A DNA stretch of 64,000 nt from Alphaproteobacteria bacterium (GCA_012103325.1 WLWY01000001.1:1153653-1217652), one strand, 5' to 3'; numbered from the stretch's first letter, positions 18,373-59,652 are shown. Translations and numbers: made by a program. The notes: generated by a model not told the origin, from the sequence alone.

Positions 18373-18429
18373 CTAGTGTCCTGATCGTGAAATTCAAAGG
18401 ATTGAATTTCGCGTGAATCATCACACTAG
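18373..18429. repeat. CTAGTG-bounded palindromic intergenic element, copy A (type 1)
   Basis: CTAGTGTCCTGATCGTGAAATTCAAAGGATTGAATTTCGCGTGAATCATCACACTAG; the internal hairpin is GAAATTCAA / TTGAATTTC. Related copies occur at 43694, 50575 and 59521. Confidence 0.7.
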
Positions 18430-18567
18430 TCACGTCCGCCTTATGCGAGATTAAGTCTGCTTTTTCTTGATCCCGGGAATGGTGGCCAATTTGCGAATTG
18501 GTGGCAGTTTCCGCGACTGCTAAAAGAAATCAAAGAACACGAATAATCCCAGGCACGGAGATTTTCG

Positions 18568-20214
18568 ATGACCGCACCAACGACCATATATTCGGCACGG
18601 CGGATTCTGACCATGAATCCGTCCAATCCCGAAGCCACCCATGTAGCCGTGCGGAGGGATCGCATCCTCGGCGCAGGCTCGCTGGAAGAGCTCGTCGGAT
18701 GGGGCGATTATACGTTGGATGACCGGTTTACGGACAAGGTGCTGATGCCCGGCCTCGTGGAAGGTCACAGCCATGCGACGGAAGGCTCGTTCTGGCGTTA
18801 TGTGTATTGCGGTTATTTCGACCGAACCGATCCCAGCGGCAAGACCTGGCCCGGCCTGCGCTCCGTCGACGCGGTTGTGGAACGCTTGCAGGAGAAGAAT
18901 GCCGAACTCGGAGAGGGGGAAGACCCGATTAGCGCATGGGGGCTCGATCCGATCTATTTCGGCGATGTCCTCGTCTCACGCGCTGATCTCGACCGCGTTT
19001 CGACAACCAAGCCGATAGGGATTCGCCAAGCGAGCGGCCATATCATGAGTGTCAATACCAAGGCCCTGGAACTGAGCGGCCTGTTGCGCACCGGTATCGA
19101 CCATCCGGGCGTACCGCTCGACACGGAAGGATTGCCAACCGGTGAAATGAAGGGGCCCGATGCGATGGAATTGGTTGCGGCCCATGTCGGCCTCGACCGC
19201 AAGGTTATGTCGGCGGATGAATGGGGATTCAGGCAATTTGGCCGACTTTGTGTCCGCCAAGGTGTCACGACGGCGGCCGACCTGGCCAATCCGCTGCCGA
19301 CGGACGCCGTCGAAATGATGCTGCGCGTCACCGGCGAAGCGGATTTCCCCGTGCGGATCATACCGTTGCGCAGATTTCAGGGCGTTACGCCGCGTGAACT
19401 TATCGAGCGATCGCGGGAACTCCGGGAGATGAGTACGGATATGCTGCGCTTAGGGCGTGTGAAGATTCACGCCGACGGGTCGATCCAAGGCTTTACGGCC
19501 CGCATCCGGTGGCCCGGCTATTACAATGGCGCGCCGAACGGACTTTGGTATGCAACGCCGGAACAGTTGCAGGAGATCTACGAGCTCGCATTGGAGCACG
19601 ATCTTCTGGTCCATACCCATACCAATGGCGACGAAGCCACGGAACTGATGCTCGATATGTTTGAGCGCGCTCTGCATAAGGTGCCGCGACCCGATCATCG
19701 CTTCACGCTCCAGCATTGCCAACTGGCGGATACGGCGCAGTTCCGTCGGATGAAGAAGCTCGGCGTTTGCGTCAATCTATTCTCCAACCACACCTATTAT
19801 TGGGGCGAGCAGCATTATGCGAAGACGGTTGGACCGGAACGGGCGCAACGCATGAATGCCTGCGCCACCGCGCTTCGGGAAGGGGTGCCCTTGGCGATTC
19901 ATTCCGATGCGCCGGTGACACCTTTGGGGCCGTTCTTCACCGCCTGGTGCGCGGTCAACAGGCTCACACCAAGTGGCCGCGTCCTCGGAGATGAGGAAAA
20001 GATCAGCGTTGCCGATGCGCTCCGCACGATCACCATTGGCGCGGCTTATACGATGAAGCTGGACCATGAGATCGGATCCATCGAGACCGGCAAACGCGCC
20101 GATTTCGCGGTGCTGGAAGACGACCCCACTGCGATCGAAGAGGCAGAACTAAAAGATGTCCGCATTTGGGGCGTTGTCCAGGGCGGCCGGGTCTTCTCGG
20201 CTGCTGATATTTAA
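18568..20214 (+). CDS. Amidohydrolase-3 family metal-dependent hydrolase
   Basis: 548 aa. HxH metal motif (PGLVEGHSHATEG), a distal HTHTNGD motif and a C-terminal Asp, all consistent with a TIM-barrel amidohydrolase. Confidence 0.8.
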   Translation: MTAPTTIYSARRILTMNPSNPEATHVAVRRDRILGAGSLEELVGWGDYTLDDRFTDKVLMPGLVEGHSHATEGSFWRYVYCGYFDRTDPSGKTWPGLRSVDAVVERLQEKNAELGEGEDPISAWGLDPIYFGDVLVSRADLDRVSTTKPIGIRQASGHIMSVNTKALELSGLLRTGIDHPGVPLDTEGLPTGEMKGPDAMELVAAHVGLDRKVMSADEWGFRQFGRLCVRQGVTTAADLANPLPTDAVEMMLRVTGEADFPVRIIPLRRFQGVTPRELIERSRELREMSTDMLRLGRVKIHADGSIQGFTARIRWPGYYNGAPNGLWYATPEQLQEIYELALEHDLLVHTHTNGDEATELMLDMFERALHKVPRPDHRFTLQHCQLADTAQFRRMKKLGVCVNLFSNHTYYWGEQHYAKTVGPERAQRMNACATALREGVPLAIHSDAPVTPLGPFFTAWCAVNRLTPSGRVLGDEEKISVADALRTITIGAAYTMKLDHEIGSIETGKRADFAVLEDDPTAIEEAELKDVRIWGVVQGGRVFSAADI

Positions 20215-20216
20215 GT

Positions 20217-21137
20217 ATGACAGCACAAACACTGCCAGTTACCGTGATCGGCGGCTATCTGGGGGCCGGCAAAACAACCTTGATCAACCATTTGCTGCGG
20301 CATGCCGACGGGCTGCGATTGGCGGTACTGGTAAACGATTTCGGTGAATTGCCGATTGATGCAGATTTAATCGAGAGCCGGAATGACAATGTCATCAGCA
20401 TCACCGGCGGCTGTATGTGCTGCGCTTATGGTAGCGATCTGATGGCAGCGCTCGCTGATCTCGACAGACTTGAGATGCCGCCGGACCATCTGTTGATCGA
20501 AGCCAGCGGTGTTGGACTGCCAGATGCCATCGCGCAGTCGGTGCGGCTAATCCCGCGCTACGCGATTGACGGGATTGCCGTATTGGCCGATGCGGAAACT
20601 GTCCATAAGCTGGGCAAGGACCAATATCTTCAGGACACGATTGAGCGTCAGCTCGATGCAGCCGACGTCATCATCCTGAACAAGGTCGACCTCGCAAGCG
20701 ATGAAGGGCTCGAAAAGACCCGACGATGGCTTTCCGGCAGAGCGCCCGATAGCCGTATCATTGAAGCGGTAAGCGCAAATATTCCGCTTTCCGTATTGCT
20801 GGGAAGCGGCATGGAACATGTGTTCGATGAGGGCCAAGGCGAAGGTCATAATCATGATCACGCCACCCATGAAGCCGCCGTTTTTACGCTGGACCGGCCG
20901 GTTGAACCTGAAATGTTGGCGAAACGATTGGCGGCAAGAGAGGTGGGTTTGGTTCGAACGAAAGGCTTCGTTCAGGCGCCGGATGGTGGTTTTTATACGC
21001 TGCAAACCGTCGGTCGGCGCTGGTCTGTGTCAGAGGCGCCATCTTCGAGTGCGCTCCAAGGCCGCATCGTTTGCATAACCCACAGGCCGCCAATAGATGC
21101 TGAGAAAATTACCCTGATCATCAACTCGGAATGCTAA
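20217..21137 (+). CDS. COG0523 (CobW/ZigA-like) GTPase metallochaperone
   Basis: P-loop GGYLGAGKTTLINHLL and a GCMCC metal-binding motif (ITGGCMCCAYG). The start is 2 nt after the amidohydrolase stop. Confidence 0.8.
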   Translation: MTAQTLPVTVIGGYLGAGKTTLINHLLRHADGLRLAVLVNDFGELPIDADLIESRNDNVISITGGCMCCAYGSDLMAALADLDRLEMPPDHLLIEASGVGLPDAIAQSVRLIPRYAIDGIAVLADAETVHKLGKDQYLQDTIERQLDAADVIILNKVDLASDEGLEKTRRWLSGRAPDSRIIEAVSANIPLSVLLGSGMEHVFDEGQGEGHNHDHATHEAAVFTLDRPVEPEMLAKRLAAREVGLVRTKGFVQAPDGGFYTLQTVGRRWSVSEAPSSSALQGRIVCITHRPPIDAEKITLIINSEC

Positions 21138-21154
21138 AGCCGAGTCGTACCGTC

Positions 21155-27505: not shown

Positions 27506-30500
27506 ATGGCAACGGAAACGCAGCGCTATCGTCTCGGCTTCGATATCGGCGGCACCTTCACCGACTTCGTGTTGGTGGACGCCACGGAAAGCCGCATCCA
27601 TCTGCATAAATGCCTGACGACGCCGGCCGACCCCTCGGTCGGCGCCCTGGACGGCATGACCGAACTGCTGGCAACAGCCGGCATTCCCCTCGCCGCCGTC
27701 GACCACATCGTCCACGGCACGACCCTGGTGACGAACGCGATCATTGAACGCCGCGGCTGCCAGATCGGTTTCCTGACGACCAAGGGCTTTCGCGATACGC
27801 TCGAAATGGGGACCGAGCAGCGCTACGACATCCATGATCTGTTTCTCAAGTTTCCGGCACCGCTGGTCGCGCGGCGGCATATCCGTGAGATCGACGAGCG
27901 TATCGCCTTCGACGGCACGGTCCACACGGCGATGGACAACGATCAGGCGCGCCATGCGATCCACGACCTTGTCGACAACGGCGCCGAGGCCATCGCGGTG
28001 TGCTTTCTGCACGCCTATCAAAACCCGGCGCATGAACGCCGGATACGGGATCTCATCCGGGCCGAATTTCCGGATCTCTCGGTTTCCATTTCAAGCGACG
28101 TGGACCCGGCGCTGAAGGAATTCGAACGGTCGTCGACCACCGTCGCCAACGCCTATGTCCAGCCGTTGATGACGCGCTACGTCGAGAAGCTCCAGACCAC
28201 CTTACGCGAAACCGGTTTCGAGGGACGGTTCCATCTGATGCAGTCGTCCGGCGGGCTGACCGCGCCGGAGACGGCGACCGCGTTCCCGGTCCGCTTCCTC
28301 GAGTCCGGCCCCGCCGGCGGCGCGCAGGCCACCGCCTTCATCGGCGAGGCTATCGGCCACAAGGACATTCTGTCCTTCGACATGGGCGGTACCACGGCAA
28401 AGGCTTGCCTGATCCAGAACGGCAAGCCGGATATCGCGGCGATGCTCGAGGCCGGACGGATACACCGTTTCAAGAAGGGCAGCGGATTGCCGATCCGCGC
28501 GCCCGTCATCGACATGATCGAGATCGGCGCCGGTGGCGGGTCGATTGCGAGAGCCGACTCGTTGGGGCTGCTCAAGGTCGGTCCGGACAGTGCCGGGGCC
28601 GATCCGGGGCCGGCCTGCTACGGCCAGGGCGGCGATGCACCGACCGTCACCGACGCGAACCTGCTGCTGGGCTATCTCGACCCGGACTATTTCCTCGGCG
28701 GCCGGATGACCCTTGACCGCGCCGCAGCAGAAAGCACCGTCGCGCAAATCGCAGCCCCTTTGAAGCTCTCGGCACTGGAAGCCGCCTGGGGCATATACGA
28801 TCTTGTGGCCGAGAACATGGCCGGCGCTGCCCGGGTTCACATCGTCGAGAAGGGCGGCGACCCGCGCCGCTTCGCCATGGTCGCGATGGGTGGTGCCGGT
28901 CCCCTGCATGCTGCCCGTGTCGCGCGTAAGCTTGGCGTTTCGAACGTCATCGTGCCGCCGGCCTCGGGCGCCGCCTCCGCACTCGGCTTCCTGGCCGCAC
29001 CGGTCGGTTACGAAATTTCCCGCTCACTGCCCATGGCGCTCGACCGTGCCGACTTTGCGGCAGCGAATGCCGCTCTGGCGGAAATGGAAACGGCCTGCCG
29101 CGCACGGTTGCTGGAAGCCGGCGGCGGCGAGGACAGCATCACGGTGGAACGCTTCGCCGAGATGCGCCTGCAAGGACAGATGCACGAAATTACCGTGCCG
29201 CTCCCCGAAGCGCCGCTAGATGGCCAATCCGTCGCAACGCTGTCCGCAACGTTCGAAGAAGAATACACAAGGCTTTTCACCCATCTCTATGACGGCGCTC
29301 GCATCGAAATCATCAATTGGCGGCTGCGCTGCACCAGCCCGGCCCCAATACTGTCGACGCGGATGGAGAGCGAAACGACCGTAGACGCAAAAAAGGGAAC
29401 GCGCCAAATCTATTCCCCGGAGGCACGCCGCATGACCGAAGCGTCGGTCTATGACCGTTATGCCTTGCAGCCGGGCGACACGGTTCCCGGCCCCGCCGTA
29501 ATCGAAGAGCGCGAAGCCACGACCATCGTGCCCACCGATGGTACGGTGACCGTCGACGCCGCGCTCAATTTGCAGCTTCACCTGGACCCGGCGCAGGACG
29601 CCGAGATCGTTATCGCGTCCGACACCGCGCTCGACAAAGCCATTGCGCGGATCGAGGCCGATCCGATCGGGTTCGAGATCATGTGGAGCCGGCTCATCAA
29701 CATCACCGAAGAATGCTGGCATACGGTGATCCGCACGGCCTTCTCACTGATCATCGGAGAGGCACAGGATTTCGCCTGTGAAATTCTAGACGCCAAAGGC
29801 AATCAGATCGCCCATTCCCCGCGGGCGATGCCGGTGTTCAACCTCACCCTGCCGGTCGCGGTGAACGCGATGATCGAACGCCACCCGCCGCAGACGCTGG
29901 TCGAGGGGGACGTGCTGATCACCAATGACCCCTGGCTTTGCGCCGGTCACCTGTTCGATATTGCTATCGCCGTGCCGGTGTTTCGCGAGCGACGGATCGT
30001 CGCTTTCGTTGGCATCGTCGGGCATGTCGCCGATATCGGCGGCACGACGGACAAGCTGAACGCGCGGGAAATCTACGACGAGGGCATCCAGATTCCGCCG
30101 ATGAAGCTGTTCAAGGCAGGCGAACCCAACGAGGACCTGTTCCAGCTTCTCGGCGAAAACATCCGCCGGCCGGATCAGGTGCTGGGCGATGTCCATGCCC
30201 TGGTTGCCGCCGGCGTCACCGGCGCGAAGCGCATCAACGAGTTCATGGAAGAATACGGGATGCACGACCTGGAGGCACTGGCAACGGTCGTTCAGACCCG
30301 CGCCGAGACGGCGATGCGCAAGGCGATCAGCGCACTGCCGGACGGCGTCTACGAGCATGTCGTGCAGGGCGACGGGATCGACGAGGTGATGACCTACCCG
30401 ATCAGCGTCTCGGTTCAGGGCGACGAAATCGCCGTCGATTTCGAGGGCGCACCGCCGCAGACCGAGCGCGGCGGCAGCAATTGCACGCTCAGCTACACGA

Positions 30501-31384
30501 TGGCGCACGCGACCTATCCGCTGAAATGCATCCTCACCCCGGACGTGCCCGGCAACGCCGGATGTTATCGGCCGATGTCGGTCACCGCACCACGCGCCAG
30601 TATCTTCAATTGCGAAAAACCCAAGGCCGTCGATACGCGCGTGCGCACCGGCTGGTACATCGCGCCCAATGTCTTCGGCGCGCTTGCCGATGCTGCCCCC
30701 GATAGGGTCCAGGGCTTCACCGGCATCCCGTCGAGCGCCCTGTTTCATGGCGTCGGGGCGGCTGGCGTGTACTACAGCGATCATCTGTTTCAGGGCGGCG
30801 GTCAGGGCGCGTCGGATCAGGGCGACGGCAAATCGGCGCTGCTCTACCCCACCAGCGCCGCCAACACCTCGGTCGAACTGTTCGAAACCCGGGTGCCCGT
30901 GCTGGTGATCGAGAAAGCCTTCCTGTCCGACAGCGGCGGCCCCGGCCGCAAGCGCGGCGGGCTGGCGCAAATCGTCGCCACGCGAAAACTGAACGACGAT
31001 GGCGAGGCGTGTCAGGTCGGCCTCTATCCCAATGGCGTGAAAGCCCCGATGGCGGGCCTGTTCAGCGGCAAACCGGGCCGCGCGGGCCAGGCGTTGGTAA
31101 CGGAAAGCGACGGTACGAAAACCGACCTCGGCGTTGGCGCCTTGACCCGGCTGATCCAGACGGACCAAAGAGCGGACCTCTTCCTCGCCGGCGGTTCCGG
31201 TTTCGGCGATCCCTGGACCCGGACGTATGACGAGGTTCAGCGCGACCTCGATGAAGGATACATTTCAGCGGATGGCGCGCGTCACGACTATGGCTGTGTC
31301 GTCGAAGCGGACGGCCGGATCGACCAAGAGGCAAGCGATAGCTTGCGCATGAAAAACGTGAAGGTTCGCGAGCCGGCGGAATAG
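27506..31384 (+). CDS. Fused hydantoinase A / hydantoinase B (oxoprolinase-type, HyuA-HyuB fusion)
   Basis: 1292 aa. N-terminal HyuA signature RLGFDIGGTFTDFVLVD. The C-terminal half matches HyuB (FEIMWSRLINITEECWHTVIRTAFSLIIGEAQDFACEILD). Confidence 0.85.
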   Translation: MATETQRYRLGFDIGGTFTDFVLVDATESRIHLHKCLTTPADPSVGALDGMTELLATAGIPLAAVDHIVHGTTLVTNAIIERRGCQIGFLTTKGFRDTLEMGTEQRYDIHDLFLKFPAPLVARRHIREIDERIAFDGTVHTAMDNDQARHAIHDLVDNGAEAIAVCFLHAYQNPAHERRIRDLIRAEFPDLSVSISSDVDPALKEFERSSTTVANAYVQPLMTRYVEKLQTTLRETGFEGRFHLMQSSGGLTAPETATAFPVRFLESGPAGGAQATAFIGEAIGHKDILSFDMGGTTAKACLIQNGKPDIAAMLEAGRIHRFKKGSGLPIRAPVIDMIEIGAGGGSIARADSLGLLKVGPDSAGADPGPACYGQGGDAPTVTDANLLLGYLDPDYFLGGRMTLDRAAAESTVAQIAAPLKLSALEAAWGIYDLVAENMAGAARVHIVEKGGDPRRFAMVAMGGAGPLHAARVARKLGVSNVIVPPASGAASALGFLAAPVGYEISRSLPMALDRADFAAANAALAEMETACRARLLEAGGGEDSITVERFAEMRLQGQMHEITVPLPEAPLDGQSVATLSATFEEEYTRLFTHLYDGARIEIINWRLRCTSPAPILSTRMESETTVDAKKGTRQIYSPEARRMTEASVYDRYALQPGDTVPGPAVIEEREATTIVPTDGTVTVDAALNLQLHLDPAQDAEIVIASDTALDKAIARIEADPIGFEIMWSRLINITEECWHTVIRTAFSLIIGEAQDFACEILDAKGNQIAHSPRAMPVFNLTLPVAVNAMIERHPPQTLVEGDVLITNDPWLCAGHLFDIAIAVPVFRERRIVAFVGIVGHVADIGGTTDKLNAREIYDEGIQIPPMKLFKAGEPNEDLFQLLGENIRRPDQVLGDVHALVAAGVTGAKRINEFMEEYGMHDLEALATVVQTRAETAMRKAISALPDGVYEHVVQGDGIDEVMTYPISVSVQGDEIAVDFEGAPPQTERGGSNCTLSYTMAHATYPLKCILTPDVPGNAGCYRPMSVTAPRASIFNCEKPKAVDTRVRTGWYIAPNVFGALADAAPDRVQGFTGIPSSALFHGVGAAGVYYSDHLFQGGGQGASDQGDGKSALLYPTSAANTSVELFETRVPVLVIEKAFLSDSGGPGRKRGGLAQIVATRKLNDDGEACQVGLYPNGVKAPMAGLFSGKPGRAGQALVTESDGTKTDLGVGALTRLIQTDQRADLFLAGGSGFGDPWTRTYDEVQRDLDEGYISADGARHDYGCVVEADGRIDQEASDSLRMKNVKVREPAE

Positions 31385-36821: not shown

Positions 36822-37346
36822 CTAAAACGCTTTCGCGCCCAAAAATTTCTGCGACAGGACCAACGCTGCCGACTGGCTGCCCTTCATTGCGGCTGAAATC
36901 GCCGCCGCCGCCGTCTTTTCCAGGTCTTCCGGCTCGTCCACCTTGAAGGTTAGCACGCCCATGGTTTCGAAGATCGGTTCGACGGCCTGGCCCATCGGAT
37001 ACTGCCAGGGGTTCTGCTCGCCGAAGTCACCCCGCATCGAGACGACCATTAGCAGCGGGAAGCGTCCGCCATTAACTAGCGACAGATAATTGACGCAATT
37101 GCCGACGCCGCTCGACTGCATGCACAGCACCGCGCGCTTGCCGACCAGATCGGCGCCGGCGCAAACCGCGATACCTTCTTCTTCGGTGGTCAGCAGAACG
37201 GAACGGGTCTCGTTGCTGGCATCGACATGTTCGATAAGGCGCTTGTTGCCGGCATCCGGCACATAGGCGAACAGATCCACGCCCGCGTCCAGCATCTGGC
37301 GAAAGAGCGTCGCGGACCAATCGTCGTCCACGGATTGTTGAGTCAT
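36822..37346 (-). CDS. comD: Sulfopyruvate/phosphonopyruvate decarboxylase alpha subunit (ComD-like)
   Basis: Matches the N-terminal pyrimidine-binding half of a TPP enzyme (FAYVPDAGNKRLIEHV...CMQSSGVGNCVNYL). The start is placed at MTQQSVDDDW with a GAGGGA Shine-Dalgarno; it lies immediately upstream of comE. Confidence 0.7.
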   Translation of the reverse strand: MTQQSVDDDWSATLFRQMLDAGVDLFAYVPDAGNKRLIEHVDASNETRSVLLTTEEEGIAVCAGADLVGKRAVLCMQSSGVGNCVNYLSLVNGGRFPLLMVVSMRGDFGEQNPWQYPMGQAVEPIFETMGVLTFKVDEPEDLEKTAAAAISAAMKGSQSAALVLSQKFLGAKAF

Positions 37347-37492
37347 TGGGTTATCCCTCAGGAAATAGGAAGGCCGCGTTATATCAGACGAAGCGGCGCG
37401 ACGAAACCGCGACCGGGTCGATTGCTTTGACGTCACTGGACCGCGCTTATAAGCTTATCGCTTCCTGTCCTTTTCCCGCCACCGGTGAATCC

Positions 37493-39136
37493 ATGACCGA
37501 CGCGTTCGATCCCGTAACCCTGGAGATATACTGGAGCCGCCTGATCTCCATCGCGGACGAGTCCGCGGCGGCGCTCCTGCGCACGTCCTTTTCGACCATC
37601 GTCCGCGAGTCGAACGATTTCGGTACCGTCCTGATGGACGCCAACGGCGACTCGCTTTCGGAGAATACGGGCGGCATTCCGTCCTTCTCGGGCATCCTGC
37701 CGCGCACGCTGAAACACTTCCTGGCACGCTTTCCCAAGGAAACCTGGAAGCCCGGCGACTGCGTCATCACCAATGACCCGTGGCTGGCGACGGGGCACCT
37801 GCCCGACATCACTATGGCAATGCCGATCTTTCATAACGGCACATTGGTCGGGTTTTCGGGATCGATCGCCCATTCGCCGGATATCGGCGGATCGCTGTGG
37901 TCCGCGGACTGCCGCGAGCTGTTCGAAGAAGGGCTGCGCATCCCGCCGACGAAATTCCTGATCGAAGGCGAACCGAACGAGTTGCTGCAGGAAATCATCC
38001 TCAGCAACGTGCGGCTTCCGGATCAGGTCTTGGGCGACCTCAACGCGCAGGTCACGGCGAACCAAGTCTGCGGCCGGCGGCTGCACGAATTTTTGGACGA
38101 TTCCGATCTGGCAGATTTGTCGAGCCTGTCGAGCACCCTGCAACAGCGTGCGGAGAGCGCGATGCGCCGCGCCATCGAGGAGGTACCGGACGGCGTCTAC
38201 CACGCGACACTCGATGCCGACGGCTTCGACGAGGACGAAACCCATATCGAATGCACGATCACGGTCAAGGGCTCGGACCTGAACATCGACTATGCCGGCA
38301 CGTCGCCGCAGATCAATCGCGGCCTCAACACCGTGATGAACTACACCTATGCCTACTCCGCCTACCCGATCAAATGCGCGCTCGACCCGAGCACGCCGCG
38401 CAACGAAGGATCCTACCGTCCCGTCACCGTGGACGCGCCCGAAGGCTGCATCCTCAACCCGCGCTACCCGGCGCCCTGTAACGCGCGCCAGCTGACCGGA
38501 CACCTGCTTGCCGGCGTCATCTACCGCGCGCTGGCGGAAGCGATTCCGGACCGCATACTGGCCGACAGCGGCAGCGCGCCCTCGATGCGCGCCGTCTTCA
38601 ACGGGCTCGACCCGCATGGCAACCGCTTCTCGCAGATTCTGTTCGCCAGCGGCGGCATGGGCGCCAGCGCGCATAAGGACGGGCTGCCAACGACGGCGTT
38701 CCCGACCAATTCCGGCGCCGGCAGCATCGAAGCGTTCGAGAGCGTGTCGCCGCTGATCGTCTGGAAGAAGGAGTTCCGCGTCGATTCCGGCGGCGCCGGT
38801 CAGTTCCGCGGCGGCTTGGGGCAGGAATGCGAGATCGAGGTCCGTTCCGCCGAACCCTTGCAGCTGTCGCTGCTGTCGGACCGCTGGCGGCACCCCGCGA
38901 CGGGTGTGCTGGGCGGCGAACACGGGGCGACCAGCAGGATCAGTTTCAGCGACGGCACCATACCGCACCAGAAATCGCGCACGACCATCGGGCCCGGCAT
39001 GCGGCTGCACATGGAATATGCCGGTGGCGGCGGGTATGGCGACCCGAAAACCCGCGATCCTGAGCTGGTCCTCGACGACATCAAGAACGGCTATATCACC
39101 GCGGACGCCGCAAAACGCGACTACGACGTCTCCTAA
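37493..39136 (+). CDS. hyuB: Hydantoinase B / oxoprolinase family protein
   Basis: Starts MTDAFDPVTLEIYWSRLISIADESAAALLRTSFSTIVRESNDFGTVLMDANGD. About 548 aa. Confidence 0.85.
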   Translation: MTDAFDPVTLEIYWSRLISIADESAAALLRTSFSTIVRESNDFGTVLMDANGDSLSENTGGIPSFSGILPRTLKHFLARFPKETWKPGDCVITNDPWLATGHLPDITMAMPIFHNGTLVGFSGSIAHSPDIGGSLWSADCRELFEEGLRIPPTKFLIEGEPNELLQEIILSNVRLPDQVLGDLNAQVTANQVCGRRLHEFLDDSDLADLSSLSSTLQQRAESAMRRAIEEVPDGVYHATLDADGFDEDETHIECTITVKGSDLNIDYAGTSPQINRGLNTVMNYTYAYSAYPIKCALDPSTPRNEGSYRPVTVDAPEGCILNPRYPAPCNARQLTGHLLAGVIYRALAEAIPDRILADSGSAPSMRAVFNGLDPHGNRFSQILFASGGMGASAHKDGLPTTAFPTNSGAGSIEAFESVSPLIVWKKEFRVDSGGAGQFRGGLGQECEIEVRSAEPLQLSLLSDRWRHPATGVLGGEHGATSRISFSDGTIPHQKSRTTIGPGMRLHMEYAGGGGYGDPKTRDPELVLDDIKNGYITADAAKRDYDVS

Positions 39137-39154
39137 AGACAGGTGGATGAAAGA

Positions 39155-41239
39155 ATGAACAAACGTATCCGCATCGGGGTCGATGTCGGCGGGACCTTCA
39201 CGGATTTCGTGCTGGTCGATGAAGAACGGGACCTGATCTATACGGGCAAGCGTTTGACGACACCGGACGACCCGAGCGCCGCAATCCTCGACGGCACGGC
39301 ACGGCTGCTTACCGAAGCGGGCACGGAACCGGCGCAAGTCCACAGCATCGTCCACGGCACGACCCTGGTCACCAACACGATCATCGAACGCAACGGCGCG
39401 AAGATCGGGCTGATCACCACCAAGGGCGTGCGCGACACCTTGGAGATGGGCAAAGAGATCCGCTACGACCTCTACGATCTGTTCCTCGAAGCGCCGCCCA
39501 CCCTCGTCCCGCGCCACCTGCGCCGGGAAGTCGCGGAGCGTGTCGCGCCGGACGGTGAGATCCTGCTCGATTTCGATGCGGATGCGTTCCGCGCCACAGC
39601 CCTCGACCTCATCGAAACCGAGAAGGTGGAAGCGATTGCCGTCTGCTTCATGCACGCCTACCGCAACCCGGATCATGAGCGCCAAGCCAAGGCGATTCTG
39701 ATGGAGGAGTTCGACGCGACGCCGTTCACCATCTCCTCCGATGTCGCACCGGAAATCCGCGAGTTCGAACGCACCAGCACCGCCTGCGCCAACGCCTATG
39801 TGCAACCGCGCATGCAGAGCTATCTGCAGCGGCTCGAAACCGAACTGCAGGCGCAAGGCCATTCGGGCGCGCTGTACGTCATGTTGTCCGGCGGCGGCAT
39901 CACCACTGTCCAGTCGGCCCGCGAATTTCCCATCCGTCTCATCGAGTCGGGTCCAGCGGCAGGTGCCATGGCCGCGTCGTACTACAGCACCCTGACCGAC
40001 ACCGAGAACCTGATCTCCTTCGACATGGGCGGCACCACGGCGAAGATGTGCCTGATCGATGGCGGCCAGCCCGACCGCAAGCATGATTTCGAAGCCGGCC
40101 GGGTGCGCCGCTTCCAGAAGGGCTCCGGCCTGCCGCTCAAAGTCTCCGTCGTCGACATGATCGAGATCGGCGCCGGCGGCGGCAGCCTTGCCAATGTCGA
40201 CAATATGGGTCTGCTGAAGGTCGGGCCGCGCAGCGCCGGCTCCGCGCCGGGGCCGGTCTGCTACGGGCTCGGCGGCACCGACCCGGCCGTGACCGACGCC
40301 GACCTCTATCTCGGCTACCTCAACCCCGACTACTTCCTCGGTGGGGAGATGAGGCTCGACATGGCGACGGTGGAACAGGCGATCGAGGAGAAGATCGCCA
40401 AACCGCTCGGCCTCTCGACCCTGGACGCCGCCATCGGCATCCACAACATCGTCAACGAGAACATGGCCGCCGCGACGCGCATGCATCTGGCCGAGAAGGG
40501 CCGCGACCCACGGCGCTATCAGATGATCGCCTTCGGCGGTGCCGGGCCGGTGCATGCTTACGGCCTCGCGCAAATCCTGAAGCTCAAGCGGCTGATCGTG
40601 CCGCTCGGTGCCGGCGTGACCTCGGCGCTGGGATTCCTCGTTGCGGCACCGGCCATCGATTATGTACGCAGCTACGTCTCGCGGCTGGAGCAGCTCGACT
40701 GGGGGCATCTCAACACGCTGTTCAAGGAGATGGAGGAAGAGGCCAAGGGACTGCTCGTCGATGCCGGCGCCCAGCCCGAGGAAATTACCCTGACGCGGAC
40801 GGCGGACATGCGGCATATCGGGCAGGGATTCGAGATTGCGGTGCCGGTTCCGGAGGGCGAATTAACACCCGGTCTTCTACCGGGTATTCGGGAGGCGTTT
40901 TTCCAGTCCTATCACCGGCTGTTCGAGCGTACGGTTCGGGATGTTTCCATTGAATCAATGAGTTGGCGTCTTGCCGCGAGTGCACCAGTGCCCAACATCA
41001 AACTTGCGTTCGGCGGACAGTCGTCGGAAACGGGGGAAGCGCTGAAAGGCACCCGCCAGGTCTACTTCCCAGAGACTGGATTCGCCGCCTGCGACGTCTA
41101 CGACCGCTACGCGCTGCACCCGGGCGACAGCTTCACCGGCCCGGCGGTCGTCGAGGAGCGCGAATCGACCACGGTGATCGGCCCCGGCGGTTCGGTCACC
41201 GTCGACCCATACCGCAATTTGATCTGTGCACTGCCCTAA
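39155..41239 (+). CDS. hyuA: Hydantoinase A / oxoprolinase family protein
   Basis: MNKRIRIGVDVGGTFTDFVLVDEE with an ASKHA-fold body. An alternative start lies at 39143. Confidence 0.85.
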   Translation: MNKRIRIGVDVGGTFTDFVLVDEERDLIYTGKRLTTPDDPSAAILDGTARLLTEAGTEPAQVHSIVHGTTLVTNTIIERNGAKIGLITTKGVRDTLEMGKEIRYDLYDLFLEAPPTLVPRHLRREVAERVAPDGEILLDFDADAFRATALDLIETEKVEAIAVCFMHAYRNPDHERQAKAILMEEFDATPFTISSDVAPEIREFERTSTACANAYVQPRMQSYLQRLETELQAQGHSGALYVMLSGGGITTVQSAREFPIRLIESGPAAGAMAASYYSTLTDTENLISFDMGGTTAKMCLIDGGQPDRKHDFEAGRVRRFQKGSGLPLKVSVVDMIEIGAGGGSLANVDNMGLLKVGPRSAGSAPGPVCYGLGGTDPAVTDADLYLGYLNPDYFLGGEMRLDMATVEQAIEEKIAKPLGLSTLDAAIGIHNIVNENMAAATRMHLAEKGRDPRRYQMIAFGGAGPVHAYGLAQILKLKRLIVPLGAGVTSALGFLVAAPAIDYVRSYVSRLEQLDWGHLNTLFKEMEEEAKGLLVDAGAQPEEITLTRTADMRHIGQGFEIAVPVPEGELTPGLLPGIREAFFQSYHRLFERTVRDVSIESMSWRLAASAPVPNIKLAFGGQSSETGEALKGTRQVYFPETGFAACDVYDRYALHPGDSFTGPAVVEERESTTVIGPGGSVTVDPYRNLICALP

Positions 41240-42033: not shown

Positions 42034-42085
42034 ATAAGGCTTCGAGGCTTCCTTTATTTAATCAGGGTCGCTGCGTGGCGCGTTT

Positions 42086-42291
42086 CCTCTCCCTGTGGGG
42101 AGATTTCTGCGAAATTGCGAATGGAGCCGTTTCACCCCCCATCCTAACCTTCCCCCACAAGGGGGGAAGGGATAATTTAGATAGATCAATAGGTTATTCT
42201 CCTCCCCCTTGAGGGGGGAGGATTAAGGTGGGGGTGAAACGGCTCCATTCGCAATTTCGCAGAAATCTCCCCTCAGGAGAGGGTATATCGA
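42086..42291. repeat. ~200-bp GC-rich nested palindromic intergenic element, copy 1
   Basis: 53-bp arms (CCTCTCCCTGTGGGGAGATTTCTGCGAAATTGCGAATGGAGCCGTTTCACCCCC and its reverse complement) flank two inner hairpins, CTTCCCCC-ACAA-GGGGGGAAG and TCCTCCCCC-TTGA-GGGGGGAGGA. A related copy lies at 45252-45570. Confidence 0.75.
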
Positions 42292-42455
42292 CAACGCAAT
42301 CTGCGTCGCTTCGAAAATTCTACATGCGATCGCCCTGGCGTGAACAGGGGTGTCGATTCCTGCATGGCGACGCCGCACTCTCCAAGTGTCCGAATGGCTA
42401 TCGACAGCCTGCGCGCGATACTATGCTATCGCGCGAAAGAGCGAGAGGAGAATCC

Positions 42456-43697
42456 ATGTTCGAGCGCGTAAAACCGGAAAGCGTCGGCCTGTCGGGAGTC
42501 CGCCTGCAGCGGATCGCGCCCTGGATGGACGATTATGTCCATAGCGGCAGGTTTCCGGGCTGCCTGACCGCCATCCTGCGCCGCGGCGAACTCGCCTATC
42601 TCGACTGCCGCGGCATGGCCGACCCGGACAGCGGCCGCGCGGTCGCCGAGGATACGGTGTTCCGCATCTACTCCATGACCAAGCCTATCGTGACGGCGGC
42701 GGCGATGACGTTCTTCGAGGAAGGCCGCTTCCAACTCGACGACCCGGTCGCGCGCTTCCTGCCGGAATTCGCCGACACCCCCGTCTGGGTCGAGGGCGAA
42801 GGCAGCGCGATGCGCACCGAGCCGGCCGCGGACAGCATGAAGATCTGGCACTTGATGAGCCACACGGCGGGGCTGGTCTACGGCGCCCGCAACGACAGCC
42901 CGGTCGGCGCGATGTGCCGCGAGAACGGCATCGACTTTTCGCGCCGCAACGGCGGTTCGCTCGCCGACACGGTGCGCAACCTGGCGAAGATTCCCCTGCG
43001 CTGGCAACCGGGCACGCGCTGGGAATACAGCGTGGCCACCGACGTGCTGGGCCGCCTCGTCGAAGTCCTGGCGGAACAATCTTTGGATCAGGCACTCAAG
43101 CACCGCATCTTCGACCCGTTCGGCATGCACGAGACCGGCTTCCAGCTGCAGCCCGGCCAGTTGCCGCGCTTCGCCGCCCTGTTCAATGCCAAGGACGGCG
43201 GCCTGGAACTGAACGAACGGCCTGACGAAAACGCCAGCCACGCGCGCGACGTCACCTTGTGCTCCGGCGGCGGCGGGCTGGTTTCCACCGTGGGCGACTA
43301 TCTGCGCTTCGCTGAGGCGATCCGATGCAAGGGCGCGCTCGGTGATGCGCGCGTCGGTGATGCCCGCATCCTGGGCCGCCGCACTGTCGAGTTGATGACC
43401 ATGAACCACATGCCGGGCAATGCCGATCTGGCGGCGATGGGTACGCCGGTGCATAGCGAGACGAGTTACGAAGGCATCGGCTTCGGGCTCGGCTTCTCCG
43501 TCGTGCTCGACCCGGCAACCGCCAAGGCGGCCTGTTCCACGGGCGAGCATGCCTGGGGCGGGGCGGCTTCCACGGCTTTCTGGATTGACCCGGTCGAGGA
43601 CATTGTTGTCGTATTCATGACGCAAGTCATGCCGTCCTCAAGCTACCCGATCCGCCGCGAGTTGCGGTCGCTCGTCTATCAAGCAGTCATAGACTAG
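42456..43697 (+). CDS. Serine hydrolase, beta-lactamase/transpeptidase-like (class C/EstB-type esterase family)
   Basis: SxxK motif FRIYSMTKPIV. The start is placed at MFERVKPESVG, preceded by GAGAGGAG; the ORF track extends upstream through the palindromic repeat. Confidence 0.8.
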   Translation: MFERVKPESVGLSGVRLQRIAPWMDDYVHSGRFPGCLTAILRRGELAYLDCRGMADPDSGRAVAEDTVFRIYSMTKPIVTAAAMTFFEEGRFQLDDPVARFLPEFADTPVWVEGEGSAMRTEPAADSMKIWHLMSHTAGLVYGARNDSPVGAMCRENGIDFSRRNGGSLADTVRNLAKIPLRWQPGTRWEYSVATDVLGRLVEVLAEQSLDQALKHRIFDPFGMHETGFQLQPGQLPRFAALFNAKDGGLELNERPDENASHARDVTLCSGGGGLVSTVGDYLRFAEAIRCKGALGDARVGDARILGRRTVELMTMNHMPGNADLAAMGTPVHSETSYEGIGFGLGFSVVLDPATAKAACSTGEHAWGGAASTAFWIDPVEDIVVVFMTQVMPSSSYPIRRELRSLVYQAVID

Positions 43698-43744
43698 TGT
43701 CCTGATCGCAAAATTCGAGGGATTTTGCGTGAATCAGCACACCA
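43694..43744. repeat. CTAGTG-bounded palindromic element, copy B (type 1 variant)
   Basis: CTAGTGTCCTGATCGCAAAATTCGAGGGATTTTGCGTGAATCAGCACAC. Relative to copy A, both sides of the central stem have changed (CGCAAAAT / ATTTTGCG) while pairing is preserved. The element overlaps the TAG stop of the upstream gene. Confidence 0.7.
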
Positions 43745-43796: not shown

Positions 43797-44099
43797 ATGG
43801 CGAAAAAGACCCCTTACGAAATGGTCCCGCAACTGGGCAAGCTGCGCGACGAAGTGCTGTTCGGCGATGTTTGGGAACAGCCGGAGCTGACCAAGCGCGA
43901 CCGCAGTCTGGTCACGATTTCCGTGCTGACCGCGCTGTACCGTACCGACGAGCTGAAAGGCCACATGAAGCGCGCGCTCGACAACGGCGTCACCCAGGAC
44001 GAAATCCGCGGCATGATCACCCATCTGGCGTTCTATGCGGGTTGGCCGACGGCGGTAAATGCGGGGCGAATTGCCGTGGAGGTGTTCGAGGACGACTAG
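43797..44099 (+). CDS. Carboxymuconolactone decarboxylase (AhpD-like) family protein
   Basis: About 100 aa with a CMD signature (…SVLTALYRTDELKGHMKRALDNGVTQDEIRGMITHLAFYAGWP). AGGAG Shine-Dalgarno upstream. Confidence 0.75.
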   Translation: MAKKTPYEMVPQLGKLRDEVLFGDVWEQPELTKRDRSLVTISVLTALYRTDELKGHMKRALDNGVTQDEIRGMITHLAFYAGWPTAVNAGRIAVEVFEDD

Positions 44100-45251: not shown

Positions 45252-45570
45252 TGTTCTCCCCTCACCCCGCCCTGAATGCCTTTGTGGGCATCCAGCCCCA
45301 AGGAGAGGGAGAATCAGCGCGCCGATCTAGACCCTCTCCCCACGAAGACCTCTGCGAAATAGTGCCAATGACATCGTTTCACCCCCCATCCTATCCTTCC
45401 CCCACAAAGGGGGAAGGGATAACTCACAGAGATCAACAGGTTGTTCTCCTCCCCCTTGAGGGGGGAGGACTAAGGTGGGGGTGGACGGCGGCTCCCCCTG
45501 CTGTTTCGCAGAGGTCTCCCACGGGAGAGGGAGGGCCCCGCGGAGCGGGAGGGTGAGGGGAAAACATGTC
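45252..45570. repeat. GC-rich nested palindromic element, copy 2 (with additional outer inverted repeat)
   Basis: Core GTTTCACCCCCCATCCTATCCTTCCCCCACAAAGGGGGAAGGGATAA…TCTCCTCCCCCTTGAGGGGGGAGGACTAAGGTGGGGGTG is about 90% identical to copy 1. Outer inverted repeat TTCTCCCCTCACCCCGCC / GCGGGAGGGTGAGGGGAAAA. Confidence 0.7.
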
Positions 45571-50273: not shown

Positions 50274-50579
50274 TTGGAAACGGAGGACCGCATGGATCTT
50301 CAAACCTTCAAGGCCTCGATACACGGCGAGGCGCCGCCGGACGGACACAGCCTCGCGCTACAAGCCTTGTGGCAGGACGCGAAAGGCGAGTGGGACGAAG
50401 CGCACAAGCTGGCGCAGGCGCAGGATGATGCCACCGGGGCTTGGGTGCATGCCTATCTGCACCGGGTCGAGGGCGATCTGCGCAATGCCGGCACCTGGTA
50501 CAAGCGCGCCGACAAGCCCGAATGCACCGCACCGCTCGCCGAAGAGTGGGACGAGATTGCCGCGGCGCTGCTGCGCTAG
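50274..50579 (+). CDS. Hypothetical small protein (~95-101 aa)
   Basis: High-GC ORF divergent from the D-aminoacylase gene. No recognisable motif. It ends exactly at the TAG embedded in the CTAGTG repeat. Confidence 0.4.
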   Translation: METEDRMDLQTFKASIHGEAPPDGHSLALQALWQDAKGEWDEAHKLAQAQDDATGAWVHAYLHRVEGDLRNAGTWYKRADKPECTAPLAEEWDEIAAALLR

Positions 50580-50706
50580 TGTGATGATTCTGAAGTTCGC
50601 CGCATTAAATGCGGCTAATTTTAGGATCTGAATCACACGAGACTCTAATAGTGAATGTGCTGATTCACGCGAAATTCAATCCTTTGAATTTCACGATCAG
50701 GACACT
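50575..50706. repeat. Composite CTAGTG palindromic element, copy C (type 2 + type 1, inverted relative to copy D)
   Basis: The type-2 unit contains the hairpin GCCGCATT-AA-ATGCGGC, followed by the reverse complement of the type-1 unit. It runs from a CTAGTG terminus to a CACTAG terminus. Confidence 0.7.
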
Positions 50707-50709
50707 AGG

Positions 50710-51933
50710 TCAAATCACGCCGCCACCGCGCAGCGCTTCGATCTCATCGGCCGACATGCCAAGCAGGCCGCCCAGCACTTCATCTGTATGGGCGCCGAGC
50801 GGCGGCCCGGGCCAGCGGATCTTGCCTGGGTCTTCCGGCACGCCGGGCACGATGCCGGCCTGCAGGACTTTGCCGAACAGCGGGTCGTCAACGTCCCGGA
50901 CCATTTCGCGGTGGCGGTATTGTGGGTCGTTGGCGACGTCGGCGGCGGTGTAGACCAGCGAACTTGGGATATCCGCGTCGGCCAGGACGTCGAGCAGGGC
51001 GTCGGCGGTGAACTTGGCGGTCCATTGGCCGATGATCTCGTCCAGGACCTCGACATTCTCGACCCGCGCCTGATTGCCAATGAAGCGTGCATCTCGTTCC
51101 AATTCCGGCTGGCCCATCGCCTTGGAGAGCCGGCCGAACAGCGGTTCGGAGTTCGCCGCGATCAGCACCCATTTGCCGTCCGATGCCAGATAGGCGCTGG
51201 TCGGGGCGGCGGTCGCGATGCGCGAGCCCGTGGGCTCCTTCACCATGTCGAGCACGCCATATTCCGGCAACATGCCCTCCATCATGCTGAGCACGGATTC
51301 GGTGAGCGCCACATCGAGGCTGCGCGGGCGCGCATCGCCACCGACCCGGTCACGCTGCCACAGCGCCGCCATCACACCGAACGCCGCGTACAGGCCGGCA
51401 ATCGAATCGCCGATGCTGACCCCAACGCGGACCGACGGCAGGTCGGAGGCGCCGGGCGCGTGGTCGGTCAGGTAGCGCAGCCCGCCGAGCGACTCACCAA
51501 TGACGCCGAACGCCGCTTTGTCGCGGTACGGCCCGTCCTGGCCGTAGCCGCTTACATGCGCAATGACGAGATCCTCCCGCGCGCTGCGCAGCACGTTGGG
51601 CCCGAGCCCCATGCGCGCCAGCTGCCCCGGGCGAAAATTCTCCACCACCGCGTCGCTTACCTTGGCGAGACCGAGCACGATGTCCTTCGCCTTCGGGTCC
51701 TTCAGGTTGAGCGTCATGCAGCGCTTGTTGCGCGCGTGCTGCGACCACCAGGGCGAATTGCCGTCGACATGGGTCCCCCACTGCCGGATCGGATCGCCCG
51801 CGGGCGGTTCGATCTTGATCACGTCCGCGCCGAGATCGGCGAGCAGCCGCGTACCAAACGGGGCGGCGATAAAGTGCCCGATCTCCAATACCCGCAGTCC
51901 AGTGAGCGGTCCCGCCCGCGTGCCGTCGTTCAT
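50710..51933 (-). CDS. CoA-transferase family III (CaiB/BaiF) protein
   Basis: N-terminus PLTGLRVLEIGHFIAAPFGTRLLADLGADVIKIEPPAGDP. Confidence 0.85.
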   Translation of the reverse strand: MNDGTRAGPLTGLRVLEIGHFIAAPFGTRLLADLGADVIKIEPPAGDPIRQWGTHVDGNSPWWSQHARNKRCMTLNLKDPKAKDIVLGLAKVSDAVVENFRPGQLARMGLGPNVLRSAREDLVIAHVSGYGQDGPYRDKAAFGVIGESLGGLRYLTDHAPGASDLPSVRVGVSIGDSIAGLYAAFGVMAALWQRDRVGGDARPRSLDVALTESVLSMMEGMLPEYGVLDMVKEPTGSRIATAAPTSAYLASDGKWVLIAANSEPLFGRLSKAMGQPELERDARFIGNQARVENVEVLDEIIGQWTAKFTADALLDVLADADIPSSLVYTAADVANDPQYRHREMVRDVDDPLFGKVLQAGIVPGVPEDPGKIRWPGPPLGAHTDEVLGGLLGMSADEIEALRGGGVI

Positions 51934-55833: not shown

Positions 55834-55915
55834 GGAAAGATGTCAACCGGCGTCCGAGCGCCGCGGATGCAATTGAACGAAATTCGACCGGCGACCGCAA
55901 CAGGGACACCGTCAA

Positions 55916-58165: not shown

Positions 58166-58405
58166 TAATTCACACCCTTAACAAGCAACGTTTCAGCTTG
58201 AGATCGAGCCGCATACGTTTTTGCGAAGCAGTCACAGCCCACTCCCTGCGCCAGATCGGTCTAACAATTTTAACTATTAATAAAATTTATGATGAATAAA
58301 TCGTTAATATCTATATTTCATTGGTTTTATTACAGCGTATGAAATTCTACTTCGTTCTCTTCTTGATAAAGGTTGTGACCACTAGAACCACAAAAGAGAG
58401 TCCGT

Positions 58406-58675
58406 TAATACCAAGAAGCGTTGATAGTGACCCCTAGAGATCGCGCATGCGGTCCGTCGGGTAGGAGGGGCGGCGCCGGCGATGTGGTGCATCGTCAAGC
58501 CGTTCCGACGCCCTCCGACGGACCGCATACGCGACCCGAAGGGCGGGTTATCCAGGCTTTCGGACAGCGTCGCGCCCGGCTTCCGATGCACCGCATCGCC
58601 GCACCGTGCGCTTCTTGCCGAAAACCTGGGTAACCTGTCTCTATGAGTCACTATCAACGCTTCTTGGTATAATGT
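58406..58675. repeat. ~270-bp long imperfect palindrome with perfect 23-bp terminal inverted repeats (MITE-like)
   Basis: Terminal inverted repeat TACCAAGAAGCGTTGATAGTGAC / GTCACTATCAACGCTTCTTGGTA. The arms are about 70% self-complementary with nested inverted repeats (GCATGCGGTCCGTCGG / CCGACGGACCGCATACGC). It generates two mirror-image ORFs, 58382-58657 on the - strand and 58421-58633 on the + strand. Confidence 0.65.
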
Positions 58676-58708
58676 CCTCGCCTATCGGAATCGCGGGAGA
58701 CAATTGGA

Positions 58709-59497
58709 ATGGCGGGACGGCTAGACGGCAAGGTGGCAATCGTTACGGGTGCGGCGTCGCGCGGCGAAGGGATTGGCAACGGCAAAGCCACTGCCTTGCT
58801 GTTCGCGCGCGAAGGCGCGCGCGTCATGCTGATAAACCGGTCGAAAGAACGCGCCGAGACGCTGCGCGAGGAGATTGCCGGCGAGGGCGGCGAGGCCGCA
58901 ATTTTCGCCGGCGACATGACCAACGCCGACGACGCGTCGGCCGCCATCGACGCGGCCGAGGAACGCTACGGCCGGCTCGATATTCTGTGCAACAATATCG
59001 GCATCGGCAGCCCCGGAAAGGTCGAGGACGTGACCGAGGCGCAATGGGACAAGATTATCGAAACCAATCTGAAATCGGCCATGCTCTGCGCGCGGGCGAG
59101 CATTCCCGCGATGCGGCGGGCCGGGGGCGGGTCGATTATCAATATTTCCTCCGTCGTCGGCGCCGGCGGCCTGGCCAGCGACGCCGGTGCGGTCGCCTAC
59201 GCAACCTCGAAAGCGGGCATGCATGGGTTCACCCAGTCCGTTGCGGCCGATTACGCCGCGGAGGGAATCCGATCGAACTGCATTGTCGTCGGCACCGTTC
59301 ACACGCCCATGGTGGCGGCGCGCGGGCCGGAATACCGCGAACGCCGGCGCCGCTCGGTGCCGTTGGAAACCGAGGGTACCGGATGGGACATCGGATGGGG
59401 CGCCGTCTATCTGGCCAGCGACGAGTCGCGATGGATCACCGGCCTGCTGCTGCCCATCGATGGCGGCCTGATGGCGATCCGGCCCTGGCCGCGTTAG
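58709..59497 (+). CDS. SDR family oxidoreductase
   Basis: Cofactor motif VAIVTGAASRGEGIG, NNIG, and the catalytic region YATSKAG. Confidence 0.85.
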   Translation: MAGRLDGKVAIVTGAASRGEGIGNGKATALLFAREGARVMLINRSKERAETLREEIAGEGGEAAIFAGDMTNADDASAAIDAAEERYGRLDILCNNIGIGSPGKVEDVTEAQWDKIIETNLKSAMLCARASIPAMRRAGGGSIINISSVVGAGGLASDAGAVAYATSKAGMHGFTQSVAADYAAEGIRSNCIVVGTVHTPMVAARGPEYRERRRRSVPLETEGTGWDIGWGAVYLASDESRWITGLLLPIDGGLMAIRPWPR

Positions 59498-59520
59498 GTC
59501 ATGGACTCATAAACTGCGCT

Positions 59521-59652
59521 GGTCTTGATCGTGAAATTCAAAGGATTGAATTTCGCGTGAATCAGCACACTAACTATTGGAGTCTAGTGTGATTCAGATC
59601 CTAAAATCCGCCGCATTCAATGCGGCGAACTTCAGAACCATCACACTAGTGT
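59521..59652. repeat. Composite CTAGTG palindromic element, copy D (type 1 + type 2)
   Basis: Type-1 unit TCTTGATCGTGAAATTCAAAGGATTGAATTTCGCGTGAATCAGCACACT, a spacer, then type-2 unit CTAGTGTGATTCAGATCCTAAAATCCGCCGCATTCAATGCGGCGAACTTCAGAACCATCACACTAG. It fills the SDR-GNAT intergenic region. Confidence 0.7.

Follow-up and report, generated by a model that had tools for sequence, protein, structure and literature searches.

What are the short palindromic repeats, bounded by CTAGTG, that recur between the genes of this stretch of DNA? The window (64,000 nt from an uncultured marine alphaproteobacterium; GCA_012103325.1, WLWY01000001.1:1153653-1217652) holds four such loci, for which an earlier note, made from the sequence alone, had offered three roles: transcription terminators, mRNA stabilisers, or mobile insertions resembling miniature transposable elements with inverted repeats (MITEs). 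All four loci were recovered to within a few nucleotides of where that note had placed them. Genes identical to those of the window are also present in the metagenome assemblies GCA_012271395.1 and GCA_011087655.1. We are confident that they are copies of a MITE, a non-coding derivative of an insertion sequence (IS) of the IS630 family (Tc1/mariner-type) that inserts at TA within CTAG; the third option is strongly supported by an IS630-type parent that has both ends of the element, by empty sites, by independent insertions and by the CTAG/TA target. The copies in the window, built from one or both of two units designated type-1 and type-2, are the following.

18373-18429, plus strand: copy A, a 57-nt solo type-1 unit with CTAG at each side
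43694-43744, plus strand: copy B, a diverged type-1 unit that is shortened to 51 nt and degenerate at its 3' end (CACACCAAG)
50576-50708, minus strand: copy C, a full 133-nt element
59517-59649, plus strand: copy D, a full 133-nt element

A degenerate type-1 pattern (TGATCG-N14-34-GCGTGAATCANCACA) was run against 185,579 species, each represented by one genome, and 78 stretches were returned. The 44-nt form was found only in seven species of marine metagenome-assembled genomes (MAGs) labelled Rhodospirillaceae or Alphaproteobacteria, and 38 of the contig stretches matching this form came from a single MAG, CAYLTU01, which contains at least 41 copies of the element; this is the best lower bound to set beside the hundreds of copies per genome that the earlier note expected. 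The further copies in related genomes that the earlier note had advised looking for are thus there. Pattern matches in unrelated phyla (loci L006, L038, L043, L049, L076 and others) were discarded as chance matches and are not family members. A literature search found no published description of the family.

Within 627 kb from 8 organisms, nhmmer recovered 69 type-1 and 53 type-2 units, and wherever both were present (51 of 51 cases) they occurred in the same order: type-1, a conserved spacer of ~10 nt (AACTATTTGAAT) and an inverted type-2. The 133-nt 'composite' is therefore the canonical element. It runs from CTAGTGTCCTGATCG to GAATCATCACACTAG with a mean column identity of 90% in an alignment of 48 copies, and its boundaries in that alignment are sharp: nothing is conserved beyond the terminal CTAGs and the flanks are unrelated between copies. 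The terminal inverted repeats (TIRs; CTAGTGTCCTGAT and ATCATCACACTAG) agree at 11 of 13 positions, and the layout of the full element in its target is C-TA-(GTGTCCTGATCG ... GAATCATCACAC)-TA-G. It is made of two hairpin units, each with copies of a terminal inverted repeat, that of the IS described below, on both sides, and one motif of ~15 nt is present four times per element, in alternating orientation. The 133-nt consensus, read inward from either end, has stop codons in all three frames and no coding capacity. Most of the 'solo' type-1 units in other MAGs (L030, L055, L077, L046, L069) retain the spacer and the first type-2 bases and are therefore truncated composites, and the idea of the solo type-1 unit as an independently mobile element was dropped; copy A of the window is the only solo that is cleanly bounded.

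Copies C and D represent the full element in the window. Copy C comprises a type-2 unit (~50576-50641), the spacer (~50642-50651) and a type-1 unit (~50652-50708), and copy D a type-1 unit (59517-59573), the spacer (59574-59583) and a type-2 unit (59584-59649). They had been described as composites in exactly inverse arrangement. Reverse complements they are (50576-50703 of C against the reverse complement of 59522-59649 of D; 93% across 128 nt), but the arrangement is not a special one: it is one element in two orientations. The 38-nt core of type-1 occurs exactly three times in the window (18383-18420 and 59527-59564 on the plus strand, 50661-50698 on the minus strand) and in none of 100 shuffles, and the type-2 core GCCGCATTnAATGCGGC is found in the window at 50596-50618 and 59607-59629 only; profiles of the two units (nhmmer) recovered no further copies in the window. 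The left end of copy D is degenerate, with CGCTGGTCTTGATCG in place of CTAGTGTCCTGATCG, and copy B, which is 87% identical to the type-1 unit across its first 31 nt, has lost ~5 nt of its 3' arm. Because of this degenerate end and this truncation the copies in the lineage of the window look old, and current activity there is only a candidate possibility. An extended version of copy B, as a full element with an internal deletion reaching ~43782, was considered and abandoned because the alignment past 43744 was unconvincing. Copy A ends in GAATCATCACACTAG, which is the terminal-type variant (ATC) and not the internal-type one (AGC in 46 of the 48 aligned copies). As its 3' end carries the variant of the outer end instead of that of the inner repeat, copy A probably arose from the 133-nt element through a deletion between two direct GAATCAnCACACTA repeats.

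The source of these ends is an IS. When the terminal motif was searched outside the known copies, CTAGTGTCCTGATCG followed by ATAAGTTTCTAAG... or ATAAGTTTCTAAGATTAATAAAC... was found at the extreme ends of three CAYLTU01 contigs, a position that is the signature of a longer repeat on which assemblies break. A metagenome scan with the IS-specific part yielded five contigs, one of which (L083) holds the whole element: an IS of ~1.19 kb, from CTAGTGTCCTGATCG to CGGAATCAGGACACTAG, with a single open reading frame (ORF) of 375 aa (806-1933, minus strand). The encoded protein matches the NCBIfam model NF033545 ('IS630 family transposase') with 271 bits, where the cut-off is 100, over profile positions 1-296 of 299, and it contains helix-turn-helix (HTH) domains (PF13565/13518/13384/13551) and the domain PF13358 (DDE_3). 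The parent IS accordingly has the attributes of an IS630 element, i.e. a transposase that scores above the curated cut-off and combines an N-terminal HTH with a C-terminal DDE domain. Two more variants of the IS were recovered (L092, L093), and a tblastn search with the transposase across the window and all loci gave matches in these three loci only. The transposase clade is very abundant: homologues with at least 76% identity number in the thousands, and most of them lie on stand-alone contigs of ~1.2-2 kb. The IS and the short elements co-occur in one MAG.

At the left end, the short element aligns with all three IS variants over 31 nt (CTAGTGT..TGATC..AA.TT.....GATT), and the right ends of the IS and the element align over 24 nt (CGAACTTC(A/G)GAATC...ACACTAG). 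Since the 3' half of the type-1 unit (the right end of window copy A) also aligns with the right end of the IS, the type-1 unit is essentially the left 31 nt of the IS (the left inverted repeat, IRL) fused to its right ~27 nt (the right inverted repeat, IRR). The element is small and non-coding, has TIRs, is dispersed in many copies and shares its ends with a transposase-encoding IS, which are among the properties by which a MITE is recognised; the family was previously unnamed and is of an ordinary, well-known kind. The two kinds of element also meet physically, as in L037, where the IS is inserted in the internal CTAG of a MITE copy. L071 offers a second case: there the internal CTAG of a MITE copy holds a 15-nt stub of the left end of the IS (CTAGTGTCCTGATCG; 4905-4919) with unrelated DNA after it, probably what a deletion left of a nested insertion.

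The same comparison bears on the possibility that the repeats are palindromes of the REP/BIME or REPIN kind, spread by a RAYT (an IS200/IS605-like tyrosine transposase) or by recombination. Their modular mosaic of four ~15-nt motif copies in alternating orientation, their intergenic location and their hairpins would all suit such palindromes, whereas the 15-nt motif turned out to be the TIR of an IS630-family IS from the same lineage and the ends lie exactly at TA/CTAG. Nor was a plasmid match found in PLSDB, a collection that includes rhizobial plasmids, which is weak evidence against an identity with RIME. We therefore consider this explanation extremely improbable. An initial guess that the repeats are RIME, Bru-RS or REP-like elements of the Rhizobiales was given up after a distant blastn search of copy C against 72,556 plasmids without a match; a megablast search with 20 kb of the window gave weak gene-level matches only.

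We then considered what the terminal CTAGs represent. Both ends are CTAG in 25 of 49 copies; 40 of 49 left ends have C as their outermost base, and 45 of 49 right ends have G. This could be read as the mark of an IS5-type MITE, in which CTAG would be a 4-bp target-site duplication and the element proper would start from TGTCC; IS5-related MITEs that duplicate CTAG do exist, and MITEPsy1 of Pseudomonas syringae is described as duplicating CTAG or YTAA (PMC3189936). Where the outer bases deviate, though, the two ends do not form a 4-bp direct repeat (GTAG...CTAG, TTAG...CTAG, ATAG...CTAG), and such mismatches are expected if only TA is duplicated. The site of copy C (site C) argues in the same direction: on the side of the gene, the base beside TA completes the last codon as its third position (CGC in the window and CGA in the relative L088), so that it belongs to the flank and is neither element nor duplication. 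If the outer bases are flank, the duplicated unit would be TA, and CTAG a target preference. The IS that shares the ends is, moreover, a member of the IS630 family (271 bits, NF033545), and no IS5 model was among the matches at E ≤ 0.001. An IS5-type origin thus has hardly any probability left.

The junctions of the IS itself have the same form. In L083 they read GATC-TA-(IS)-TA-GGCAG, the left junctions of five other IS copies are also C-TA, and CTAG is present at each of the six recovered left junctions as well as at the single right junction that was read; no empty site of the IS was among the recovered loci. ISY100 was reported to insert almost exclusively at TA and to duplicate it in vitro, and IS630 to favour TA within 5'-CTAG-3' (Tenzen and Ohtsubo 1991, by its title as cited in the same paper; PMC2170065). 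The earlier suggestion of a TA or CTAG duplication was a good guess: site C and the counts of the end bases point to TA as the duplicated and CTAG as the preferred sequence. The transposase ORF of the IS (L083, L092, L093) extends to the last base of the element, its TAG stop being formed by the duplicated target TA and the next flanking base; because the stop is built from the flank, the insertion site decides where the transposase ends (a following G gives TAG, a following A gives TAA).

Relatives were fetched via the CoA-transferase that adjoins copy C, and they include empty sites. Site C is empty in L088 and L095 (flanking protein 91% identical), in which the adjoining 95-aa gene is present with the same C-terminus (AALLR*), and it is filled in the near-identical strain L094. 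On the strand of that gene, L095 reads CGC-TAA-GTC and the window CGC-TA(131 nt, GTGTG...GACAC)TA-GGTC, a difference that fits an insertion at the TA of the stop codon with duplication of TA. At the site of copy D (site D), the spacer between the SDR and acetyltransferase genes is short and empty in L089, L090 and L091, and L040 contains an older, independent insertion, which is oriented the other way and sits precisely on the stop codon. The pairs L081/L060, L007/window, L067/L042 and L056/L031 were unusable as empty-site comparisons, because synteny or alignability breaks at the intergenic region (65-77% identity).

In L040, from a related MAG, a MITE copy (2854-2986) takes the place that a glyoxalase gene (60230-60664) occupies in the window (60194-60683), with the acetyltransferase gene on one side and the cupin gene on the other, and the gene content of this acetyltransferase-cupin neighbourhood is different in every relative examined (L088, L089, L090, L091). 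In L090 and L091 (83% CoA-transferase identity) the orthologous neighbourhood is full of other ISs (IS1595 twice, IS66, IS3 and IS630 fragments), and no copy of the present MITE was found in it.

Two copies in the window end within the stop codons of genes.

42228-43697, plus strand: gene of 489 aa, its TAG stop in the terminal CTAG of copy B
50292-50579, plus strand: conserved gene of 95 aa, its TAG stop (50577-50579) consisting of the target TA and the first G of copy C

Copy C fills the entire gap between two convergent genes, as the stop of the CoA-transferase gene (50710-50712) lies 1 nt past its other end; downstream of copy B the next gene begins at 43798. The earlier note had three of the four elements start at or directly after a stop codon, with the TAG supplied by the terminal CTAG at B and C. 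The latter part holds, whereas copy D, with the SDR gene (58709-59497) on its left and the acetyltransferase gene (59660-60193) on its right, begins 19 nt after the SDR stop, and the 64-aa ORF that ends in the CTAG of copy A is not a credible gene, being called neither by the source annotation nor by our gene finder; copy A lies 139 nt upstream of an amidohydrolase gene (18568-20214).

Stop codons were counted across the family with a simple gene finder based on G+C content at third codon positions (GC3), which reproduced most of the source gene calls in the window and missed a few. By this count, 27 of 50 elements (54%) provide the TAG stop of a flanking gene with one end or both, and 4 of 50 do so with both, filling the gap between two convergent genes; as a control, the remaining non-genic CTAGs of these loci were counted, of which 21 of 105 are at stops (Fisher p = 3e-5). 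CTAG is ~5-fold depleted in the 58 family loci (427 kb, window included), with 313 occurrences where base composition predicts 1524, and the elements account for 37% of all CTAGs in these loci. A stop of the form '...C TAG' is among the few tolerated CTAGs, and since the first base of the element is G, an insertion at its TA would restore TAG and leave the gene unharmed; together this offers a mechanical explanation for the stops at B and C. By the same crude gene finder, TAG is the commonest stop in the 58 loci (144 of 360), which is unusual for a proteobacterium of 60% G+C; at most 31 of these 144 stops are element ends.

The position at stops and the folding of the repeats had suggested that they work for the host, i.e. 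as hairpins in 3' untranslated regions (UTRs) or between cistrons that are selected as terminators or mRNA stabilisers, in the way proposed for REP or ERIC. The hairpins are indeed very stable. As DNA, all four copies fold better than shuffles (z = -7.4 for A, -4.7 for B, -6.2 for C and -5.0 for D), and the consensus RNA forms two long hairpins (-55.6 kcal/mol, z = -8.65). Over the full two-hairpin structure, 17 of 50 pairs have changed on both sides, against 4.7±1.6 in shuffles and 3-7 in slid controls, so that the structure-preserving substitutions to be sought across many copies are present. For copy B in particular, the pairing CGCAAAAT/ATTTTGCG does replace CGTGAAAT/ATTTCGCG, although it contains only one true double change (G:C to A:T) next to a change of T.G to C:G. 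The earlier note took this as direct evidence of selection for structure, which was overstated: the excess of compensated pairs is real, but among all departures from the consensus pair 162 are broken, 36 are one-sided and still paired, and only 26 are compensated, as neutral decay predicts. Individual copies therefore decay without compensation. The covariation term of RNAalifold is nearly nil (-0.26 kcal/mol), and on the strand analysed A·C mismatches (80) were counted against 32 G·T pairs.

The co-variation has another possible source. The type-1 stem consists largely of the two inverted repeats of the IS, which accounts for the pairing and the co-variation, and selection on RNA structure is therefore not required. 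The variant arm of L009 (GATCGCTAAATT) is identical to the left end of the IS variant L092, and the compensated variants look like differences between source elements; a symmetric constraint from transposase binding can yield the same co-variation signal as selection for folding.

Over half of the copies lie directly at a gene stop, as would befit 3' UTR hairpins, but this proximity is explained by the CTAG target, and the orientation of the element to the abutting gene is random (16 type-1 against 15 type-2 ends at stops). Copy C has a terminator-like match (GCCGCATTAAATGCGGC then TAATTTTAGG), the single weak hit of a search for intrinsic terminators (G+C-rich stem plus U-tract) for which 0.6 hits are expected in shuffles; copy D has none, and the tail of the consensus is without a T-run. 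Scans of copies C and D revealed no promoter-like sites, and Rfam 15 at gathering threshold recognised only three tRNAs in the whole window. A permissive Rfam scan (E ≤ 10) of copy D returned generic miRNA hairpins, at no more than 28 bits where the thresholds are 60-100 (below 30% of the gathering threshold). Lastly, relatives lack the element at orthologous sites. Terminators and stabilisers are left without support as options by the missing orientation bias, the one weak terminator match and the absence of an Rfam family, and we judge a host-selected function very unlikely, although the elements may have incidental effects on the mRNAs with which they are co-transcribed. An intermediate scenario, which we think improbable but somewhat less so, is that, in a genome purged of CTAG, a CTAG-specific transposase of IS630 type and a first base G by which TAG is rebuilt let the element gather at gene ends as in a safe harbour of stop codons and that its hairpins were then co-opted to protect or terminate transcripts. 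If true, a transposon would have built a layer of 3'-UTR regulation throughout this lineage, an abundant clade of uncultured marine alphaproteobacteria.

Several observations weigh against an IS630-derived MITE and lower our confidence in it somewhat. The right TIR of the MITE differs from that of the IS at 2 of 13 positions (GA for CC), and tblastn with the IS transposase detected no transposase gene in the window. The relatives with empty sites are ~10% diverged, only 3-4 flanking nt align at the insertion point, and L088 differs at site C by an indel of 12 nt; the duplication of TA is accordingly supported through diverged relatives and not at the base resolution that near-isogenic strains would give. 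The stop-codon statistic, finally, depends on the crude GC3-based gene finder.

By analogy with what is known of the IS630 family, the elements would have spread as follows. The transposase of the parent IS (375 aa, helix-turn-helix plus DDE) would bind the ends of the element in trans, excise it and paste it into a TA, with a strong preference for 5'-CTAG-3' and with duplication of the TA. As CTAG is scarce and a '...C TAG' stop is a tolerated location, many insertions would land exactly on stops, and each insertion would make two new CTAG sites, which would favour nested and adjacent insertions. Mobilisation in trans, the cut-and-paste chemistry and the TA duplication are all modelled on the family in this scheme.

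The closest described analogue is, in our comparison, RUP, a 107-bp MITE of Streptococcus pneumoniae that was proposed to be mobilised by IS630-Spn1 (Oggioni and Claverys 1999, reviewed in PMC2229807). RUP resembles the present element in being a small non-coding intergenic repeat, with ~100 or more copies, with TIRs close to those of a resident IS630-family IS, with insertion at TA and with stop codons in all frames. RUP also inserts into other mobile elements; here, the IS was found inside a MITE copy (L037). The differences are that no sequence relationship was detected, that the hosts belong to different phyla, and that the present element has two units and four TIR-like motifs, its type-1 part being essentially an IRL fused to an IRR. 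It also has a strong CTAG preference and half of its copies on stops, features that the review (PMC2229807) does not mention for RUP. With IS630 of Shigella sonnei and ISY100 of Synechocystis, the likeness lies in the IS of L083, which matches the IS630 model end to end, has the HTH and DDE domains and is flanked by TA within CTAG, the reported target preference of IS630; the elements of the window differ from both in being without a transposase. The Correia elements or NEMIS of Neisseria are described as hairpin-forming MITEs of 100-155 bp with TIRs that are abundant near genes and co-transcribed with them (PMC2229807). The present elements are likewise hairpin-forming MITEs with TIRs, of 133 nt in full form. 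Correia elements also have TA at their ends, and no autonomous partner is known for them; they carry IHF sites and promoter elements, whereas the present family has an identified parent IS and gives no evidence of promoter-like sites or of an RNA-level function. RIME of Rhizobium and BIME/REP of enterobacteria are mosaic palindromic intergenic repeats in (alpha)proteobacteria as well; the present units differ in being derivatives of an IS630 TIR with exact TA/CTAG ends, a trait that does not enter into the definition of REP/BIME.

The window contains other repeats besides this family. Two copies (42085-42285 and 45332-45535; 81% alike) of a different palindromic intergenic element of ~200 nt, with arms CCTCTCCC...GGGAGA, TTTCTGCGAAAT and GTTTCACCCCCCATCCTAACCTTCCCCCACAAGGGGGGAAGGGATAA (74-nt arms, 86% complementary), probably belong to another MITE-like family. 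An element of ~265 nt between the histidine-kinase and SDR genes (58406-58672), with 33-nt TIRs (ATACCAAGAAGCGTTGATAGTGACCCCTAGAGA, 94% complementary), looks like a third such family, and an intergenic element of ~272 nt (6133-6404), with 37-nt TIRs (TAGGAGCCTGTCCGAGCAATGC..., 81% complementary), like a fourth. Longer direct repeats, spaced ~11.64 kb apart, are formed by paralogous hydantoinase/oxoprolinase genes (27506-31384 and 37346-41239; 71-77% DNA identity), one of which is a fused gene of 1292 aa and the other is split into two genes.

Current understanding is not overturned by these results, as MITEs derived from IS630 elements were already known in 1999, RUP being one of them. Annotators gain a defined repeat family for a group of uncultured marine alphaproteobacteria, with a 133-nt consensus, a parent IS and a target, and the family accounts for places where contigs of these MAGs break and for their odd 'palindromic intergenic' signals. 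The case also illustrates that apparent compensatory mutations in a hairpin can stem from the binding of both arms by one transposase, without selection for folding, and that, where a genome is depleted of CTAG, a transposon specific for CTAG/TA will accumulate at TAG stops and regenerate them.

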